Assembly: GCA_024742755.1 (NCBI GenBank) | Contig: JANSXW010000017.1 | Location: 2,847-66,846, forward strand | Direction: 5' to 3' | DNA length: 64,000 nt | Source of the DNA: a bacterium | Lineage (GTDB): Bacteria; Bacteroidota; Bacteroidia; Chitinophagales; Saprospiraceae | In this document: positions 19,852-28,463 of the stretch, piece by piece | How positions within the stretch are numbered: the stretch's first letter is position 1 | Layout of the letters: every line of letters starts with the position of its first letter | Position numbers and translations under genes: made by a program | Notes under the pieces: model-generated | The model's database searches: none | The model's input: only the letters and a program-made list of their open reading frames with translations | What the model was told of the DNA's origin: nothing

Positions 19852-20769
19852 TCAGTTTGTTGCATCTTCTCCCGTGTGGGATGCAATAATGCGCTTCACC
19901 TCATCTAACGACAAGTCTACGACCTTTGCAATCAACTCTAAGGCAACTCCATTTTCATATCCCCTTATAACAGTAAGCTGCTTCTCCTGATCGATGCCTT
20001 TTTCAATGCCCTGCTCAAGGCTTTGCTCACGCACTTCTTTCAGGATTGCTTCTTCAAGTCCCATAGGTTCCCTGGATTTCGTGATTTTGCGTACTTCCTT
20101 TTCAAATTTAAGCTTGTTCTCTAAATTTTGAAAGGATACGTACATATTGATAAAATTATATAGCCGTCGGACTTTTGCTTTGCTTAGCCCGCACGAAAGC
20201 AGATGGCGCATCATATCCACTTTGCTAATCAACAGTTGCTCGTCATCTTTGGTACTTAGGTCTAGTGCATTGCGTGCGACCTCAAGGGCAAAGCCGAAGG
20301 GGTTACCTGAAGCCCTTAGTTCCTCAGCCGTGTGGTCTATCAACACTAACGATTGAAAGCGATAATTAAGTTCCGTACCCATAAAGTCATAGTGGTAGGC
20401 TTTGGCGTGGTAGGAACGTTTAGTATCCGTGTAAATAACTACAGCGGTGACTGGCTTGTCATAACGGTCCAAAATACGATAATAGTACTGAAACATCCGG
20501 TAGGCAAACTGACCGTCCGGATAGCCCTGTACCTCCACATGCACCAAAAACCATTGTTCCTGCCCGTTTTTCAGCCAGGCTTTGAACAGTTTATCTGCAT
20601 GACGGCGTTTGGTATCCGACTCTGGCATGATCTGTTCTAGGTCTTTATCTAAAAATTCCAGCTTCCGATCGAGGTCTATCTCGTCGATGTACGCAGGGAA
20701 GAAGAAATGCAGAAAGTCTTCTGCCAAGTCTTCGATGATGCCTTTCCAGAGTGTGTCACGCCGTATCAT
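19852..20769 (-). CDS. Rpn family recombination-promoting nuclease / putative transposase (RpnC/YadD-like)
   Basis: DTLWKGIIEDL..DFLHFFFP, LDKDLEQI, RHADKLFK, LVHVEVQG, FAYRMFQYYYRILDRY and a C-terminal EQGIEKGI tail. Lower GC than the flanking genes. Confidence 0.88.
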   Translation of the reverse strand: MIRRDTLWKGIIEDLAEDFLHFFFPAYIDEIDLDRKLEFLDKDLEQIMPESDTKRRHADKLFKAWLKNGQEQWFLVHVEVQGYPDGQFAYRMFQYYYRILDRYDKPVTAVVIYTDTKRSYHAKAYHYDFMGTELNYRFQSLVLIDHTAEELRASGNPFGFALEVARNALDLSTKDDEQLLISKVDMMRHLLSCGLSKAKVRRLYNFINMYVSFQNLENKLKFEKEVRKITKSREPMGLEEAILKEVREQSLEQGIEKGIDQEKQLTVIRGYENGVALELIAKVVDLSLDEVKRIIASHTGEDATN

Positions 20770-20937
20770 GCACACAAAATAGGGGAAAAACCAGAACAAA
20801 CAAAAATATGCATACTTTTGTTTTGTTCTGGTTTTCAACACAGCCTGGTAACTGTGAAACCCATTTATCAAAGTCCAAACTGCATATGGCACGTAGCTGA
20901 ATGAATACTCATTGATAAAGCTGGAACTTCGTAGCGA

Positions 20938-22050
20938 TCAGCCCACCTTCCGATAATTCAACACCGCCAACCCATTCACCACCAGCGCATAACCACCCAT
21001 CACCGCGATATGCTGCCGAATATCCCATACGTCACTGCCCTTCAGCAGCACCAGCCGCATCACATCCACAAAGTAGGCCACCGGATTGAGGCGGGTAATG
21101 TCCTGTGCCCAGGGTGGCATGCTCTCGATGGGGGTGAAAAGCCCACTCATCAGGATGAAGATGATGAGGAAAAACCAGGCGATAAACATGGCTTGCTGCT
21201 GCGTCTCCGTCACCGTGCTGATGAGCAGGCCGAAGCCAAGCACGACGAGAAGGTACAATCCTGCAAAGCCAAAGATCAGCCACAGGCTGCCTACGAAGGG
21301 GATGTGGAAGACCAGCTTGCCGACCACCAATCCAATTGCCAGCTCTACCAGCGCGATGATCCAAAACGGCAGCAGCTTGCCAATGATGAATTCATGCTTG
21401 CGGATGGGGCTCACATTGATCTGCTCAATAGTGCCGATCTCTTTTTCCTTCACGATGTTCATGCCCGCCAGGAACATGCCCACGAGCGTCACCAGGATCA
21501 CCAGAATGCCGGGCACCATGAAGGTCTGATAGTTCTGCTCCGGATTGAACCAGTTGGCGGTCTCGATTTGGAGCGCCGCCGGCTGTGCCATGCCACCGCC
21601 GTAGTTTTGCCGAAAGGCTGCGTTGAAATCCCGGATAATGGCATTGGCGTAAGCCGAAGAGAGCCCGGCTTTGACCCCATTGATGGCATCTACCGCTACC
21701 TGTAACTGACTATCGCCATCGCGCAGCAGCTGCCGCTGAAAGTCAGGAGGGATTTCCAGGTAGAGATCGGCGTCCCCCTGTTGGACCTGATTCATAGCAA
21801 CCTTTCCGGAGGCCGAAGTACCGGTCAGAATGAAGTGCCCGGAAGCTTCGAATTGCCCCACCAACTGCCGGGAAGCCTGCGAGTGGTCCAGGTCCACGAT
21901 GTGCAGCTTGACGTTGTCCACCTCGTAGTCGGCGGCAAAAGCCAGTACCAGCAATTGGATGATGGGCATAAGGAAAATGAGCGGCAGCATCACCCGGTGT
22001 CGAAAAATCTGCCGGAACTCCTTTTGTACGATATAAGGAACAGTCTTCAT
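20938..22050 (-). CDS. ABC-2 type transporter permease (YbhR-like)
   Basis: KEFRQIFR, VDLDHSQASRQL, FMVPGIL, IVKEKEIGTIEQINVSP and MSGLFTPIESMP. Confidence 0.93.
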   Translation of the reverse strand: MKTVPYIVQKEFRQIFRHRVMLPLIFLMPIIQLLVLAFAADYEVDNVKLHIVDLDHSQASRQLVGQFEASGHFILTGTSASGKVAMNQVQQGDADLYLEIPPDFQRQLLRDGDSQLQVAVDAINGVKAGLSSAYANAIIRDFNAAFRQNYGGGMAQPAALQIETANWFNPEQNYQTFMVPGILVILVTLVGMFLAGMNIVKEKEIGTIEQINVSPIRKHEFIIGKLLPFWIIALVELAIGLVVGKLVFHIPFVGSLWLIFGFAGLYLLVVLGFGLLISTVTETQQQAMFIAWFFLIIFILMSGLFTPIESMPPWAQDITRLNPVAYFVDVMRLVLLKGSDVWDIRQHIAVMGGYALVVNGLAVLNYRKVG

Positions 22051-22126: not shown

Positions 22127-23242
22127 TTACGCAAGCCGGATGTTAAAGCTGCGCACGCTCAGCGCAATGAAAAATACGGTCATGCCCAGCAGGATGAGCG
22201 TCTCCTGCCACACCAGTTCCATGCCCCCCCCTTTGAGCATCACGTCCTTCAGGATGATGATAAACCACTTGGCGGGAATGATATTGCTGACCATCTGCAG
22301 CGGGAATGGCATAGACTCGATCGGGAAAATAAAGCCCGACAACAAAATCGTCGGCAGCATCAGCACCATCAGGCTGAAGAGCATAGCCACCTGCTGACTG
22401 TCGGTACGGGTAGAAATGAGGATACCGAGCGACAAAGCCGTGAGCACAAACAAAAAGCACTCCAGCCAGAGCAGGGCATAGTTGCCCCGTATCGGCATGC
22501 CAAACACCTCCGTCCCCAGCAGCAGGATCACCGCTGTATTCGCCAGGGCCAGCAGGATGTAGGGGATCACTTTGCCAATTACAATCAGCGGGGGCGGCAG
22601 GGGCGAGGCGAGCAGGACTTCCATGGTCCCCACTTCCTTTTCCCGGGTAATGGCGATAGAGGTCATCATGGCAGATACCAGCATAAGGATGACGGTCATC
22701 ACACCGGGCACAAACATAAAAACACTCTTCAGCCCGGCATTGTACAGCATGCGCACCTCGGTCTGTATGGCCATGGGCTGCTGCTGCAGGGGTTGTTGCT
22801 CCCGCAAAAAACCGCCGATGATGGCCGAGGCATAATTGGACAAGGTCGTAGCAGTATTGGGATCAGTGCCATCAGCAATGAGCTGCAGACTGCCCGGCAG
22901 GCCCCGGGCTGTTTCCATCCCAAACTCAGGCGGCAGCACCACCGCCATTTTGATGCTGCCCGCCCGGAAGGCCTGCTCAATCTCCTGTGTGCTGCGCAGG
23001 GGAAGGGCCAGGGTGAAATATTCGGAGGCGCTCAGGCGCTGCGTCAGGCGCTGGCTTTGATCGTTCTGCGCGTAGTCGAGCACGCCGATATCCGCGTTTT
23101 TGATCTCGTTGCTGATGGCGAAGCCGAAGAGCAGCACGAGCACCGCCGGCATGCCCAGCAGAATGAGCAGGGTGCGCCGGTCCCGCAGGATGTGGTAGAA
23201 TTCTTTGCGGATAAAAATGGATAGCTTTTTGTTCGTGCTCAT
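22127..23242 (-). CDS. ABC-2 type transporter permease (YbhS-like)
   Basis: KEFYHILRDRRTL, DGTDPNTA, FVPGV, ITREKEVGTMEVLLASPL and LSGFIFPIESMP. Confidence 0.93.
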   Translation of the reverse strand: MSTNKKLSIFIRKEFYHILRDRRTLLILLGMPAVLVLLFGFAISNEIKNADIGVLDYAQNDQSQRLTQRLSASEYFTLALPLRSTQEIEQAFRAGSIKMAVVLPPEFGMETARGLPGSLQLIADGTDPNTATTLSNYASAIIGGFLREQQPLQQQPMAIQTEVRMLYNAGLKSVFMFVPGVMTVILMLVSAMMTSIAITREKEVGTMEVLLASPLPPPLIVIGKVIPYILLALANTAVILLLGTEVFGMPIRGNYALLWLECFLFVLTALSLGILISTRTDSQQVAMLFSLMVLMLPTILLSGFIFPIESMPFPLQMVSNIIPAKWFIIILKDVMLKGGGMELVWQETLILLGMTVFFIALSVRSFNIRLA

Positions 23243-23280
23243 TGGATTGATTTTTAAAAATTAGTAGTCTTGTTTCTTTT

Positions 23281-23580
23281 CAAATACATAGGCGCACGGG
23301 GGTTCTGCTCGGATTTTTTGAACACATAGGCGCATAGGTGGTTTTGCTTGGGTTTTTGAACACATAGGCACATAGGGCACATAGTTTGTTTTGCTCGGGT
23401 TTTTGAACACATAGGCACATAGGTGGTTTTGCTTGGGGTTTTTAACACATAGGCACATAGGGCGCATAGGTGGTTTTGCTTGGGGTTTTTAACACATAGG
23501 CACATAGGGCGCATAGGTGGTTTTGCTTGGGGTTTTTAACACATAGGCACATAGGGCACATAGGTGGTTTTGCTTGGGGC
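23281..23580 (+). repeat. tandem array, left arm: 7 units of 38-47 bp (AACACATAGG[CACATAGG]n-GTGGTTTTGCTTGGGGTTTTT)
   Basis: Units start at about 23281, 23321, 23359, 23406, 23444, 23491 and 23538. Confidence 0.92.
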
Positions 23581-23630
23581 TGATGTTTGGGGAGTGTACA
23601 CTAAACTATGTTTCCCCCTCATGCCAAGCT

Positions 23631-23884
23631 CTATGTGCCTATATGCCCCTATGTGTTTCCCCCTCCCGCCGCACCCCTATGTGCCCTATGCCCCTATGTG
23701 TTTAACCTCCCGCCGCACCCCTATGTGCCTATATGCCCCTATGTGTTTAACCTCCCGCCGCACCCCTATGTGCCTATATGCCCCTATGTGTTTAACCTCC
23801 CGCCGCACCCCTATGTGCCTATGTGCCCCTATGTGTTTCCCCCTCCCGCCGCACCCCTATGTGCCTATATGCCCCTATGTGTTT
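23631..23884 (-). repeat. tandem array, right arm: 6 units of 44-46 bp (CTATGTGCCTATATGCCCCTATGTGTTT-CCTCCCGCCGCACCC), inverted relative to the left arm
   Basis: Units start at 23631, 23677, 23721, 23766, 23811 and 23857. The core is a near reverse complement of the left-arm core. Confidence 0.92.
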
Positions 23885-24615
23885 CAATCCCCCCCCGGCC
23901 GCGTCAGCCCCAAGAACACCTCATTCATCGTCTCCACCCCAAAGGATGCCTTCATCGCCTGCGGCGTATCGAGTGCCGCAATCCGCCCTTCCACCATGAT
24001 GGACACCCGGCTGCAGTACTCCGCCTCATCCATATAGTGGGTGGTGACAAATACAGTAGTCCCCTCGCTTGCTGTTTTGTAAATCATCTCCCAAAACTGC
24101 CGCCGCGTCACCGGGTCTACCCCGCCGGTAGGCTCATCCAGAAAAACGATAGCGGGCCGGTGCAAAATAGCAATGGAAAAGGCCAGCTTCTGCCGCCACC
24201 CCAGCGGAATGCCGGACACCAGGCTGTTGGCAAATTCCGACATGCCCAGCTCTTCGATCAGCCGGTCGGTTTCCTGCCGGACCTGCTTACGGGGCAGGCC
24301 GTAGATGCCGCCGTAAAAGCGGATGTTCTCCCGCACTTTCATATCCTCATAGAGCGAAAATTTCTGGCTCATGTAGCCGATGCGGCGCTTGATCTGCTCC
24401 GGCTCGCGGTAGACGTCGAAACCGGCTACTGTGGCTTCCCCTTCCGTAGGGCGCGACAACCCGGTGAGCATGCGCATCGCAGTGGTCTTGCCCGCTCCGT
24501 TGGCACCGAGGAAACCAAAGATTTCCCCTTTGCCCACCTCGAAGGAAATAGCGGTGACAGCGGTGAAGTCGCCGAAACGCTTGGTTAGGTTGTTGGCGGT
24601 GATGGCGTGGTTCAT
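23884..24615 (-). CDS. ABC transporter ATP-binding protein
   Basis: GANGAGKTT, IGYMSQKFSLY, degenerate signature PLGWRQKL, FLDEPTGGVD and THYM. Confidence 0.95.
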   Translation of the reverse strand: MNHAITANNLTKRFGDFTAVTAISFEVGKGEIFGFLGANGAGKTTAMRMLTGLSRPTEGEATVAGFDVYREPEQIKRRIGYMSQKFSLYEDMKVRENIRFYGGIYGLPRKQVRQETDRLIEELGMSEFANSLVSGIPLGWRQKLAFSIAILHRPAIVFLDEPTGGVDPVTRRQFWEMIYKTASEGTTVFVTTHYMDEAEYCSRVSIMVEGRIAALDTPQAMKASFGVETMNEVFLGLTRPGGD

Positions 24616-25511
24616 AATTGGCTTTTTTCCATGAAAATATCTTCGATTGTGGGCGTGGCCTGCCTGATTTCAATATCCGTATGCCCTTTGTCCAGCAGGT
24701 AGCCGTGGATGAGCTCGGGCCAGACCACCGACTTCAGGCTCAGATGCACGTACTCGCCGAAGGGGAATACGGTATGTGCCGGTTCGAACTGCCGCAGGTC
24801 CTGAATGAGTTTGTAAATATTGGCCGCCTTGACCGCCAACAGGGGCTTCTCGTAGCTGTTGACAATATTTTCCGGCTCGTCTACCTGCAGAATGGCACCG
24901 TCCTGCATGAGCGCTACGCGGTCGCACAGGCTCGCCTCGTCCATGTAGGGAGTGGAAACGAGGATGGTGATGTTTTTGGCCTTGAGCCGCTTCAGCATTT
25001 CCCAAAATTCCTGACGGGAGACGGGGTCTACGCCGGTGGTCGGCTCATCGAGCAGAAGCACGGTAGGCTTGTGGATCAGGGCACAGCAGAGGGCCAGTTT
25101 TTGCTTCATCCCGCCGGACAGCTTGCCCGCCCGGCGGTTTTTGAAGGGCTCTAACTGCACGTAAATATCCCGGATGAGCTCATAGTTTTCCTCAATCGTC
25201 GTGCCGAAGATGGTCGCAAAGAAAGTCAGGTTCTCCTCCACAGTCAGGTCCTGATAGAGGGAGAAGCGCCCCGGCATATACCCGATGCTCCGGCGGATGG
25301 TGCGGTAGTCGGCTACCACGTCTTTGTGGTCAAGCTGAGCGCTGCCCTCGTCCGCCAGCAGCAGCGTGGCCAGGATGCGGATGAGCGTGGTCTTGCCCGC
25401 CCCGTCCGGACCGATGAGCCCGAAAAGCTCGCCCGGCTGCACCTGCAGGTGGATGCCGCGCAGGGCAGGGGTGGTGCCGTAGGACTTCTTTAGGTTTTCG
25501 GTTTGGATCAT
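24612..25511 (-). CDS. ABC transporter ATP-binding protein
   Basis: GPDGAGKTT, LSGGMKQKL and LLDEPTTGVD. Start moved to MIQTEN. Confidence 0.95.
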   Translation of the reverse strand: MIQTENLKKSYGTTPALRGIHLQVQPGELFGLIGPDGAGKTTLIRILATLLLADEGSAQLDHKDVVADYRTIRRSIGYMPGRFSLYQDLTVEENLTFFATIFGTTIEENYELIRDIYVQLEPFKNRRAGKLSGGMKQKLALCCALIHKPTVLLLDEPTTGVDPVSRQEFWEMLKRLKAKNITILVSTPYMDEASLCDRVALMQDGAILQVDEPENIVNSYEKPLLAVKAANIYKLIQDLRQFEPAHTVFPFGEYVHLSLKSVVWPELIHGYLLDKGHTDIEIRQATPTIEDIFMEKSQL

Positions 25512-25537
25512 GTTGTTTGCTTTTTTAGGCATAGGTA

Positions 25538-25581
25538 GACTTGACAAGGGCTTTCGGGGTGCCCGGGAAACTTGTCAAGTC
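25538..25581. repeat. short palindromic REP-like element (copy 2)
   Basis: Perfect 11 bp inverted repeat GACTTGACAAG-N22-CTTGTCAAGTC in the gap between the HlyD and ATPase genes. Confidence 0.65.
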
Positions 25582-25586
25582 AGGCT

Positions 25587-26495
25587 TTACTGTTGGCTAG
25601 TTTGCAAAACCACTTCCCCGGGCATCCCCATCTTCAGCCGGCCGTCGTTTTTGACCTTCACTTTGAAGGCGTAGACGAGGTTGACGCGCTCCTCTTTGGT
25701 CTGCACGGTCTTGGGCGTAAACTCCGCTTCATCGGCAATCCAGCTGATGGTGCCGGACAGGCTGCGGTTGCTTTCGGCATCCTGATCGACGAGGACGGTG
25801 ACTTCCTGCCCGATTTGGAGTTCCGGCAATTGGGCACCGCTGACGTAGGCGTGCAGTTCCAGTTCTTCCAGCGGGGCGATGGTGTACAGCGGCTTTCCGG
25901 CAGCGGCCATCTCATGGGGCTCGGCCAGTTGCAGCAGCACCGTGCCCGATACTGGGTTGTAGATGTAACTGCGGCGGATTTGCTCTTCCACCATCTCTAT
26001 CTGCGCCTCGATGGGTGCAATTTCTGACAGTATGCCCCGGTTGGCCGTTTGGCTTTGGGCGCGGATGGCATCAATTTCTTTATCGATCACTTCAAGCTGC
26101 CCCTGCAGGTCATCGAGTTGCTTAGTGGGCGCAGCTTTATCGGCGATGAGGGCCTGCAGCCGGCGCTCTTCGCGCAACAGGTTTTGCTTGCGCTCCTGCA
26201 GTACGCGCACCTGAGGCTCGGCATCCTGCGTTTTGCCGGTCACGGCGCGGATTTTTGCCCGGAGCTGTTCGCGCTGCAGGTGCAAAAGGGTGGTGTCGAT
26301 CAGGCCCACAAGCTCACCGGCCCGGAGCTGCTGTCCTTCCTCCACGTCGAATTGGATGAGCTTGCCGTTGGCTTCCGCCGAAATGATGACTTCGCGGGCT
26401 TCAAACTTGCCGTAGGCATCAGAAGTGGCTTCGTTGTCCTGACAGGCGGCGAGGGGCAATAGGGCCAGGAGGCAGATGGTTATTTTGGTATTCAT
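25587..26495 (-). CDS. HlyD/YbhG-family membrane fusion lipoprotein
   Basis: Lipobox LAAC, GKFEAREVIISAEANG, coiled-coil hairpin, AEFTPKTVQTKEER and LKMGMPG. Confidence 0.92.
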   Translation of the reverse strand: MNTKITICLLALLPLAACQDNEATSDAYGKFEAREVIISAEANGKLIQFDVEEGQQLRAGELVGLIDTTLLHLQREQLRAKIRAVTGKTQDAEPQVRVLQERKQNLLREERRLQALIADKAAPTKQLDDLQGQLEVIDKEIDAIRAQSQTANRGILSEIAPIEAQIEMVEEQIRRSYIYNPVSGTVLLQLAEPHEMAAAGKPLYTIAPLEELELHAYVSGAQLPELQIGQEVTVLVDQDAESNRSLSGTISWIADEAEFTPKTVQTKEERVNLVYAFKVKVKNDGRLKMGMPGEVVLQTSQQ

Positions 26496-26496
26496 G

Positions 26497-27765
26497 TTAC
26501 AGTATTCCTTTGAGGGTGAGTAATTGAATGTACAGTTGCTGCTTTTGAAGGCGGTAGCGCTCCACCTGCAGCTGCGCCTGCCGTACCGCTGCCGATTGTG
26601 TGATGTAATCGGCTGCCACGGCGGTGCCTTCGCGGAGCTGCGCGTCGATTTGCTGCAGCACTTCTTCCTGTAGCTCTATGATGGCCTGTCCTTGCTCGAT
26701 GAGCCCGTCAAGCGCAGCCAGTTCAGTGCGGATTTGCACCTCCTGCTGCTCAATCTGAGTGGTAAAAGCAGCCTGACGCTGCCCGATCATTTCCCGCTGC
26801 AGGCTCAGCAATTGCCGGCTACGGTCCGCCTTTCCCCAGTCCACGAAATTCCAGGTGAAGCGGATGCCACCCATGGCAAAGGGGCTAAGGCTGTTGTCGA
26901 AAAAGTTGAGCGGATTGGGTGCGCCGATACCCGCCTGCAGGAAAGCCCCAACGGTAGGGCGCTGATCGGCTTCTATGCCCGACAAGCCCGCCATGACCTG
27001 TTGCTGTTGCTGCTCGAACAGCCGGAGTTCCGGGCGCTGTAAGCCTGCTTGTAGCAATTCGTTCTCCTGCGCGGGCAAATCGAAGGTGATGCCTTCCGGG
27101 ACGGCCTGCCCGAGGAGGACGGAGAGGCCTTCGCGCAGGGCATCGGTTTGGCTTCTCACCTGAGTGGCTTCCGACTGCAACCGTAGCTGTTCAGCCAGCA
27201 ATCGCTTGAGCTCGCCCGGCAGCAGTATACCATGCTCCACACCGGCTTCCACCTGTGCGATCCGCCCCTCTAGCTGCTCCAGCCCGCTTTCCAGAATGCG
27301 CGCCCGCTCCCGTTGCAGCAGCATGCCAAAGACGTACTGATTGACCTGTGTTTTGAGCTGCTCCAGCTCCACTTCCAATTGGGCTTCAGATACGGCCAAC
27401 TGTGCCGCTTCAGCCTCCTGCCTCGCCGCTATGCGCCCTCCATCGTAGAGGCGGTACTGCGCATCGGCTGTGGTTTGGAACCGGTACAAAGGCAGGTCCA
27501 GCCCCGCTCCGCCCGGCACCGGTAGCTCAAAGGGGAACTCCACCACTTCGCTCTGCAGGCTCGCCTGTGCATTCCAGCTGATTTGTGGCAGCCGCGCCTG
27601 ATCGATCTGCTCCTGCCGCAACGCACTCGCCGAACGCAGCAGGCCGCCCTGAGCGGAAAGGGGATGGGCTTGTTGGGCCAGACGGTAAGCTTGCTCAAGC
27701 CGGAGAGGCTCCTGCGCCCGGGCCGGCAAGGCTAACAGCAAGCATAAAAAAGGAAAGTATCTCAT
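26497..27765 (-). CDS. TolC-family outer-membrane efflux protein
   Basis: Signal peptide MRYFPFL...ARAQ, helical repeats, YRLYDGG and RPELRLF. Position within the efflux operon. Confidence 0.88.
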   Translation of the reverse strand: MRYFPFLCLLLALPARAQEPLRLEQAYRLAQQAHPLSAQGGLLRSASALRQEQIDQARLPQISWNAQASLQSEVVEFPFELPVPGGAGLDLPLYRFQTTADAQYRLYDGGRIAARQEAEAAQLAVSEAQLEVELEQLKTQVNQYVFGMLLQRERARILESGLEQLEGRIAQVEAGVEHGILLPGELKRLLAEQLRLQSEATQVRSQTDALREGLSVLLGQAVPEGITFDLPAQENELLQAGLQRPELRLFEQQQQQVMAGLSGIEADQRPTVGAFLQAGIGAPNPLNFFDNSLSPFAMGGIRFTWNFVDWGKADRSRQLLSLQREMIGQRQAAFTTQIEQQEVQIRTELAALDGLIEQGQAIIELQEEVLQQIDAQLREGTAVAADYITQSAAVRQAQLQVERYRLQKQQLYIQLLTLKGIL

Positions 27766-27776
27766 ATTTTCAGTAT

Positions 27777-27792
27777 TTAACCATTTGGGTAA
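27777..27792. promoter_or_regulatory. putative TetR operator (copy 3, TTAAC-N6-GGTAA)
   Basis: One mismatch to the two copies in front of tetR. Lies 12 bp upstream of the tolC start. Confidence 0.5.
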
Positions 27793-27809
27793 ATCGAGTG
27801 CAAAAAAAA

Positions 27810-28415
27810 TCACGCCTTTCGGATCGCGCTGATGACAAACGCCGCCACCTCCTGCTTGCGCTGCTCCATGAGCTCATCGTACATCTTGTGGCTCACCTGC
27901 ATCATGCCCTGAAACATCGGCCGGGCGAGGAAGGGGAAAACGCATAGGGACAGCATGTTGAGTACCAACCCAATAGGATTGACCGGCTTAATGTTGCCCG
28001 CTGCGACTTCCTGCTGAATCTGCATCACCAAAGGCAGGGGGTTGGGCCGGGTCTGCCGGCTCAGCAGCTCCTGCGCAAAAGCTTCGCCCTTTTGGTTGAG
28101 CTCGCTGATGACGAAGGCTGGCATAGCCGGATTCTGCATGAGCAGGCTAATGTAACGGTCTACAAACTGCTCAATCTTCTCGAACAGCGGGATTTCCGCC
28201 TCAAAAACCTGATTGATGCCCGCTGAGAATTTGGCGAAAGCCTCGTCAAAAACCGCCCGGAAAAGCTTGTTCTTGCTGCGGTAGTAGTAGTGCAGCAGCC
28301 CCTTGTTGATCTCCGCCCGGTCGGCAATCTCCTGCATGCGGGCAGCGGCAAAGCCTTTAGTCATGAAGACTTCGCGGGCGGCATCCAGTATTTTTTCCTC
28401 TGCGGTGGGTTCCAT
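27810..28415 (-). CDS. TetR/AcrR family transcriptional regulator
   Basis: EEKILDAAREVFMTKGFAAARMQEIADRAEINKGLLHYYYRSK. Start moved to MEPT. Confidence 0.95.
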   Translation of the reverse strand: MEPTAEEKILDAAREVFMTKGFAAARMQEIADRAEINKGLLHYYYRSKNKLFRAVFDEAFAKFSAGINQVFEAEIPLFEKIEQFVDRYISLLMQNPAMPAFVISELNQKGEAFAQELLSRQTRPNPLPLVMQIQQEVAAGNIKPVNPIGLVLNMLSLCVFPFLARPMFQGMMQVSHKMYDELMEQRKQEVAAFVISAIRKA

Positions 28416-28420
28416 AAGCT

Positions 28421-28463
28421 TTACCTGATTGGGTAATTTTGACAAATTTACCTATTTGGGTAA
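28421..28463. promoter_or_regulatory. two tandem palindromic operators TTACC-N6-GGTAA
   Basis: TTACCtgattgGGTAA (28421-28436) and TTACCtatttgGGTAA (28448-28463), immediately upstream of tetR. Confidence 0.65.

Follow-up and report, generated by a model that had tools for sequence, protein, structure and literature searches.

What is the array of inverted repeats that parts the ATPase genes from the permease genes of an ABC efflux operon, how did it arise there, and does it serve the transporter or only itself? The array occupies 23283-23883 of the window (the whole 64-kb stretch of DNA that was analysed), in a TetR-OEP-HlyD-ABC operon where it separates the second ATPase gene from the first permease gene. 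All genes of this operon lie on the minus strand: TetR regulator (27810-28445), outer-membrane efflux protein (26497-27813), HlyD-type adaptor (25587-26495), first ABC ATPase (24612-25547), second ABC ATPase (23884-24615), first ABC-2 permease (22127-23242) and second ABC-2 permease (20938-22050). The two ATPases are thus on one side of the array and the two permeases on the other, as the preliminary description of this DNA had stated. The last word of the right arm directly abuts the stop codon of the second ATPase gene (TCA on the plus strand, 23884-23886). At the opposite end, 40 bp of original A/T-rich spacer and permease leader (23243-23282, minus strand), conserved in the related genomes G001 and G002, were left intact by the insertion. 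Directly downstream of the permeases, a 346-aa ORF (19852-20892, minus strand) matches Transposase_31 (E 1.4e-7), a YhgA-like, Rpn-type PD-(D/E)XK recombination nuclease family.

Sequence inspection, TRF and a table of units all resolved a true bipartite inverted tandem array, with seven direct left units opposite six direct right units and a decayed seventh right unit. The left arm (L1-L7, 23283-23579, plus strand) has units starting at 23283, 23321, 23359, 23406, 23444, 23491 and 23538. With a length of 38 or 47 bp, each comprises a core of two to three CACATAGG-type words, spaced by 8-9 bp, followed by a G/T-rich linker of about 20 bp. In the right arm (R1-R6, 23631-23883, plus strand), the units end at 23657, 23702, 23747, 23792, 23837 and 23883 and have a period of 45-46 bp, each with a C-rich linker of about 18 bp and then a core of three CCTATGTG-type words. 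Read on the opposite strand, the right cores nearly match the left ones. L1 is degenerate and, more generally, decay is most advanced at the outer end of the left arm and at the inner end of the right arm. L5 is identical to L6 and R3 to R4, and with such identical neighbours in an assembly of 436 contigs the number of units may be collapsed. TRF also returned a higher-order period of 85 bp, that is 38 + 47. This organization is not a product of chance, as judged by the double-word pattern, which occurs 5 times in the window compared to 0.02 expected by chance; the array is also the sole tandem repeat within the 64 kb.

The arms have the design of GxxExxY hairpin cassettes, namely inverted arms with two to four copies of a 7-8-nt word about one helical turn apart. 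Regarding the features that define a MITE, the ends of the array are inverted termini (AACAC...GTGTT) and comparison of filled with empty sites revealed no clear target-site duplication. A CRISPR array could be dismissed, the linkers being near-identical within each arm and the locus being free of cas genes.

The centre of the array had been described as 50 unique bp containing a palindrome. The 10-bp palindrome AGTGTACACT is indeed present at 23593-23602, and by itself is not significant in 50 bp. The uniqueness did not stand: the right half of the 51-bp centre (23580-23630) is a decayed innermost right unit, R0 (23606-23630, plus strand), made of a last word and a linker-like tail and with homologues in G001, G002 and the metagenome contig L090. 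Only about 25 bp (the loop, 23580-23605) are therefore unique, and even within these there is partial homology with the right-hand portion of the longer centre that relatives have. The origin of the linkers was also reconsidered. A likeness between the right linker and the 3′ end of the ATPase gene had been taken as a sign that each arm captured its flank. This likeness is weak, since 20 of 2000 shuffles reach its score, and it is inflated by the end of the core that the two share; that of the left linker to the left flank is not significant. For the arms of the window array, captured flank is therefore no more than suggestive.

We then considered the folding of the locus. The sense transcript of 23230-23900 was predicted to form long hairpins, as anticipated, in a 221-pair interrupted duplex of -316.5 kcal/mol (z -15) whose longest perfect helix is 19 bp. 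The innermost hairpin alone reaches -51.6 kcal/mol and each arm by itself folds weakly. Single-stranded DNA of the array folds likewise. In the operon mRNA, this extended pairing of the two arms would probably be cleaved by RNase III, leaving the ATPases and the permeases on separate messages, by analogy with the stems of 23S intervening sequences (IVS), which are cut by this enzyme (PMC4990558). No Rfam family matched the array at a permissive threshold. No sigma-70-like promoter was detected in the array with a scan model that does not cover Bacteroidota promoters. Nor was there a terminator-like site within 23243-23883 on either strand, which eliminates an intrinsic terminator or attenuator. 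Since the element brings no terminator and leaves the permease leader intact, it may well be a tolerated passenger in the operon.

To get access to the history of the site, the ATPase-permease junction was compared in 16 orthologous operons and three metagenome contigs. Besides the genome of the window (G000; seven left and six right units plus R0), the junction is occupied in G001 and in Phaeodactylibacter xiamenensis KD52 (G002), both with two left and two right units plus R0, and on contig L090 with three left and two right units plus R0. It is empty in G010 (a spacer of about 80 bp) and on contig L091 (about 40 bp), both of which share about 83-85% DNA identity with the occupied genomes. 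In G009, G011, G013 and further relatives, the genes abut or lie a few tens of bp apart at most. In G018 (L013, G018:C23), the junction carries an unrelated insert of about 510 bp, which resembles a short coding region on the same strand as the operon. All four occupied sites fall in one clade (support 95/98), with both empty sites outside. A single insertion at the gene boundary, after the stop codon of the ATPase gene, in the common ancestor of G000, G001 and KD52 is therefore the simplest history.

The number of units varies between relatives as in a VNTR (two to three left and two right units compared to seven and six), as had been foreseen. KD52 and L090, with 98.0% DNA identity, are distinguished only by a single left unit (two versus three), the right units being unchanged, so that the arms change independently. 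This agrees with the independent amplification of each arm suggested in the preliminary description. It contradicts a nested-insertion model, in which every event would insert a left and a right unit together into the loop; the pattern of decay, left outermost and right innermost, also contradicts this model. A comparison of G001 with KD52 shows drift in linkers and centres but hardly any in the cores, and in G001, KD52 and L090 the centre is about 60 bp longer than in G000. Something keeps the words constant while the linkers and centres drift.

These comparisons also bear on whether the array is real. G000 is a bin assembled from short metagenomic reads into 436 contigs, the identical pairs L5/L6 and R3/R4 could be mis-counted, and a sister locus of the array (C156/C370, see below) breaks a contig. 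However, the same bipartite layout is found at the same junction in three independent assemblies, including an isolate genome, and we regard an assembly artefact as scarcely credible.

They bear equally on the possible use of the array to its host. Setting the balance of ATPase and permease is a possible role, which we disfavour because the unit number is variable, the centre is not conserved and the same hairpins occur at unrelated loci. In its strongest form, this explanation holds that the stem was selected as a site of RNase III processing or of stabilisation, which uncouples the ATPases from the permeases or fixes their ratio. The very stable fold (z -15), the cleavage of 23S IVS stems by RNase III (PMC4990558) and the retention of the element at the junction through about 12% DNA divergence speak for it. 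Nevertheless, most relatives do without it, their genes abutting or lying close together, neither the number of units nor the centre has been conserved, the same hairpins lie in unrelated spacers elsewhere and no Rfam family corresponds to them. Such a selected function is in our opinion improbable. Still less credit can be given to a contingency locus where changes in unit number would switch permease expression on and off: close relatives do differ in unit number, but the units lie outside coding sequence and any recognisable promoter, and periods of 38-47 bp are unlike those of known phase-variable tracts. The array most likely has no role in efflux.

The 6.95-Mb assembly of G000 (436 contigs, 92.5% complete) was searched for the words of the array, and CACATAGG words were found at four loci: the window array, C405, C156/C370 and C299. 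One of these encloses a GxxExxY gene and the others are gene-less. At C405:26487-26909 lies the sole PF13366 gene of the genome, with 137 bits to TIGR04256 ‘GxxExxY protein’; along this locus come five left units, the 140-aa gene, two further left units and then four right ones. On both sides of the gene stand the CACATAGG words of the window array. The statement, offered earlier, that short-period inverted arms flank GxxExxY cassette genes is hence true of this very genome. At C299, a 180-bp centre lies between one left unit and two right units, without a gene. The occurrence of the words at unrelated loci, and in other genera, speaks against a TetR operator or an iteron array.

At C156:25500-25838 and C370:1-330, whole CACATAG hairpins are arranged in tandem with a period of about 160 bp, spanning a contig break. 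Each unit there includes the diverged last 70 bp or so, stop codon included, of the upstream short-chain dehydrogenase gene. The alignment score of the unit with the 3′ end of this gene is 43, the best of 1000 shuffles being 27, so that at this locus, by sequence comparison, captured flank can be taken as proven.

The same statement had extended to four-helix-bundle genes, and it was borne out there too: G000 contains three such genes (PF05635) and analogous arms, made of other words, accompany them. At C291:9560-10230, a PF05635 gene lies between the end of a cas4-like gene and cas1, with arms of GGGGTGAGG / CCTCACCCC words, and a second copy of the first 27 nt of cas1 lies 38 bp upstream of its real start. 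Insertions of this type may explain the published ‘associations’ of 23S_rRNA_IVP with cas loci (PMC3936711). In front of another four-helix-bundle gene, at C10:89690-89860, GGCAGTGGGGTAGTC-type words are repeated in a long tandem stretch, whose inverted partner is not obvious downstream.

GxxExxY (PF13366) genes are small and very common, and a survey of the superfamily lists the function of their family as unknown (PMC3424549). Among PDB sequences, nothing matched the GxxExxY protein. Its AlphaFold2 model is confident (pLDDT 94.8). A fold search with this model returned weak matches, all of them PD-(D/E)XK nucleases: Cas4 SSO0001, lambda exonuclease and a tRNA splicing endonuclease. Four residues show no variation among 46 homologues, namely E34 (the Glu of GxxExxY), D74, E84 and K86; they constitute the canonical PD-(D/E)XK set. 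The protein of about 140 aa is thus nuclease-like, with a predicted PD-(D/E)XK fold.

How closely are words and gene associated? CACATAG hairpins were detected in 10 of 61 genomes of the family (one per genus; at most 1 mismatch in 16), and a reversed control word gave 0 in those CACATAG-positive genomes. All six genomes whose best GxxExxY protein is at least 59-60% identical to that of C405 carry CACATAG hairpins, and in these six the gene sits between or beside complete hairpins. Most other CACATAG copies are single gene-less hairpins lodged between gene ends. On a broader scale, around the best 80 homologues from 185,579 species genomes, loci across Bacteroidota, ACATAG and its complement are present at least twice each within 250 bp in 49 cases, compared to 1 of 80 with control words. 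Somewhat more distant GxxExxY genes have arms built from CACTAAG, CACAAAAG, CATTAAG or CACAGAG words, and gene-less hairpins exist for these as well, with 39 CACTAAG matches in G014 and 13-25 CACAAAAG matches in G061, G062 and G040. In L061, L063, L069 and others, many of the hairpins flanking GxxExxY genes are extended by a 5′ T run and a 3′ A run, an arrangement that is unchanged on the other strand and contrary to that of an intrinsic terminator; some solo hairpins deviate.

KD52 has a GxxExxY gene 97% identical to that of C405, with the same CACATAGG arms and large arrays. One of these (L170, C39:294600-295700) is composed of one left unit, the GxxExxY gene and then whole hairpins of 125 bp, about nine in tandem. 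The layout at this locus differs entirely from that of the syntenic GxxExxY locus C405 in G000, where the right units are 118 bp.

The association has exceptions. Within the genus, G010 and G009 yielded neither a GxxExxY gene nor hairpins, G001 has arrays and no cognate gene was found in its 610-contig assembly, and G007 has two hairpins with no cognate gene detected. In G056, a genome of the family sample rated 100% complete, nine CACTAAG-type matches occur with no GxxExxY homologue at E <= 1e-5, and these look like orphan hairpins. Because of such exceptions, and since gene and arms are linked so that their co-variation could reflect linkage alone, the association of words with subclades is only suggestive of recognition of the words by the GxxExxY protein. 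The presence of subclade-specific words both on the gene and on gene-less hairpins nevertheless provides a concrete hypothesis for what this protein recognises. As to amplification, the gene is not sufficient, because in other genera that bear it the hairpins are mostly single and unamplified.

The window array itself is of the gene-less form. No GxxExxY-family ORF or gene remnant was detected between its arms. It had been proposed that the site is an emptied cassette; in this explanation, a GxxExxY or other small gene between two hairpins was lost by recombination and the remaining solo hairpin was then amplified. Such a loss would be easy, in the manner of a solo LTR, given that the gene copies of relatives (L059, L057) have a complete hairpin on each side, and the additional 60 bp or so in the centres of G001, KD52 and L090 are of no known origin. 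Yet the centres showed no similarity to the C405 cassette or its protein by blastn or tblastn, none of the 16 orthologous junctions and none of the three metagenome loci holds such a gene, and hairpins lacking a gene outnumber those with one in every genome examined. We hold this route to be rather doubtful, while deserving more weight than the other alternatives considered here.

Taken together, these results make it fairly probable, in our view, that the array is a gene-less CACATAG/GxxExxY hairpin which was inserted once and then expanded arm by arm. Most likely it is part of a selfish system of repeat and nuclease, and does not regulate the transporter. The hairpin module consists of arms of two to three CACATAG(G) words, 8-9 bp apart, which in the gene form enclose a GxxExxY gene of about 140 aa. 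After the single insertion, each arm has gained or lost units of core plus linker separately, to reach seven on the left and six (plus one) on the right. Units were presumably added by unequal recombination or slippage, since the 85-bp higher-order period and the identical neighbouring units fit such events. Whether the GxxExxY protein acts in trans, starting or speeding the gain of units by breaks or nicks at the words, is a matter of analogy with other systems; we give it serious consideration, somewhat short of an even chance.

An alternative dispenses with the protein altogether: an inert hairpin would have grown as a passive VNTR, by replication slippage or unequal crossing-over only, and the GxxExxY gene would have no part in it. 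The 38 + 47 periodicity and the identical neighbours are as expected from unequal exchange, and G001 has arrays where the cognate gene was not found. On the other hand, the words are constant across genera while linkers and centres drift, unlike inert DNA, and the hairpin word of each genome matches its resident GxxExxY subclade. We consider a purely passive origin unlikely.

Going further than the arm-by-arm expansion of a gene-less hairpin, one may speculate that GxxExxY proteins and hairpins of turn-spaced words constitute a third independent class of nuclease-plus-repeat systems, after RAYT/REPIN and Ssn/NTS. The protein, probably as a multimer on extruded or single-stranded hairpins, would read words spaced by 8-9 bp and nick there; the arrays would be the footprint of cutting and repair, and their RNA stems would be RNase III sites that reshape operon expression. 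We put this forward tentatively. The low copy number, with four loci in G000, is unlike that of REPs and weighs against our main reading of the array as a hairpin of a repeat-plus-nuclease element.

Literature searches retrieved no description of GxxExxY word arms. What is new here is the resolved history of one site and the separate amplification of two arms around one centre. KD52, a cultured relative with a 97% identical gene and a version of the array with 2+2 units, is suitable for testing. Arrays of this kind explain contig breaks and odd ‘intergenic repeats’ inside operons, and nuclease or four-helix-bundle genes reported as ‘associated’ with cas and other operons (PMC3936711) may be mere insertions.

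Among known systems, the 23S IVS of Coxiella and Leptospira (PMC4990558) resemble the array in their terminal inverted repeats, which give a long stem in the transcript, and in being inserted without destroying the host transcript; their cargo family, the four-helix-bundle S23p, also occurs with analogous arms in G000. In contrast, the window array lies in an mRNA operon between protein genes, has no ORF and has tandemly amplified arms. Its position between genes of the ABC operon excludes a 23S rRNA intervening sequence proper.

REP/BIME elements are intergenic hairpin repeats whose tandem clusters vary in unit number and carry linkers and gene scraps (PMC3333891, PMC3116915), and TnpA-REP has been proposed to drive BIME amplification (PMC3333891). 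As in REP/BIME-RAYT systems, a single-copy nuclease-type gene is here flanked by its own repeats and gene-less copies are dispersed between genes. The alternating orientation of REP clusters is found at C156/C370 and at C6/C39 of KD52, whereas the window array is bipartite (LLLLLLL-RRRRRR) with arms amplified separately. The arms also differ in design, a REP being one short palindrome with GTAG and the arms here a series of turn-spaced 7-8-nt words, and four loci in 6.95 Mb are far from the tens to hundreds of copies per genome typical of REPs. Moreover, the GxxExxY gene has a predicted PD-(D/E)XK fold, not Y1/HUH. No Y1 HUH transposase (PF01797) was matched in G000 (92.5% complete), while control genomes did match, and membership in the REP/RAYT family was rejected on this ground.

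SsnA, a GIY-YIG single-strand nuclease, has been shown experimentally to cut beside NTS hairpins (PMC11893778). In NTS/SRM-Ssn systems, as here, a small nuclease gene is framed by a hairpin repeat and the repeats cluster around genes. In those systems repeat type and gene are found together from genome to genome; by analogy only, CACATAG, CACTAAG and CACAAAAG hairpins follow GxxExxY subclades in a comparable manner. The framed gene is however of the PF13366/TIGR04256, PD-(D/E)XK type and not GIY-YIG, and the repeat design differs; the different nuclease superfamily excludes an Ssn system as such. By analogy, the CACATAG/GxxExxY element would work most like REP/BIME-RAYT and NTS-Ssn.
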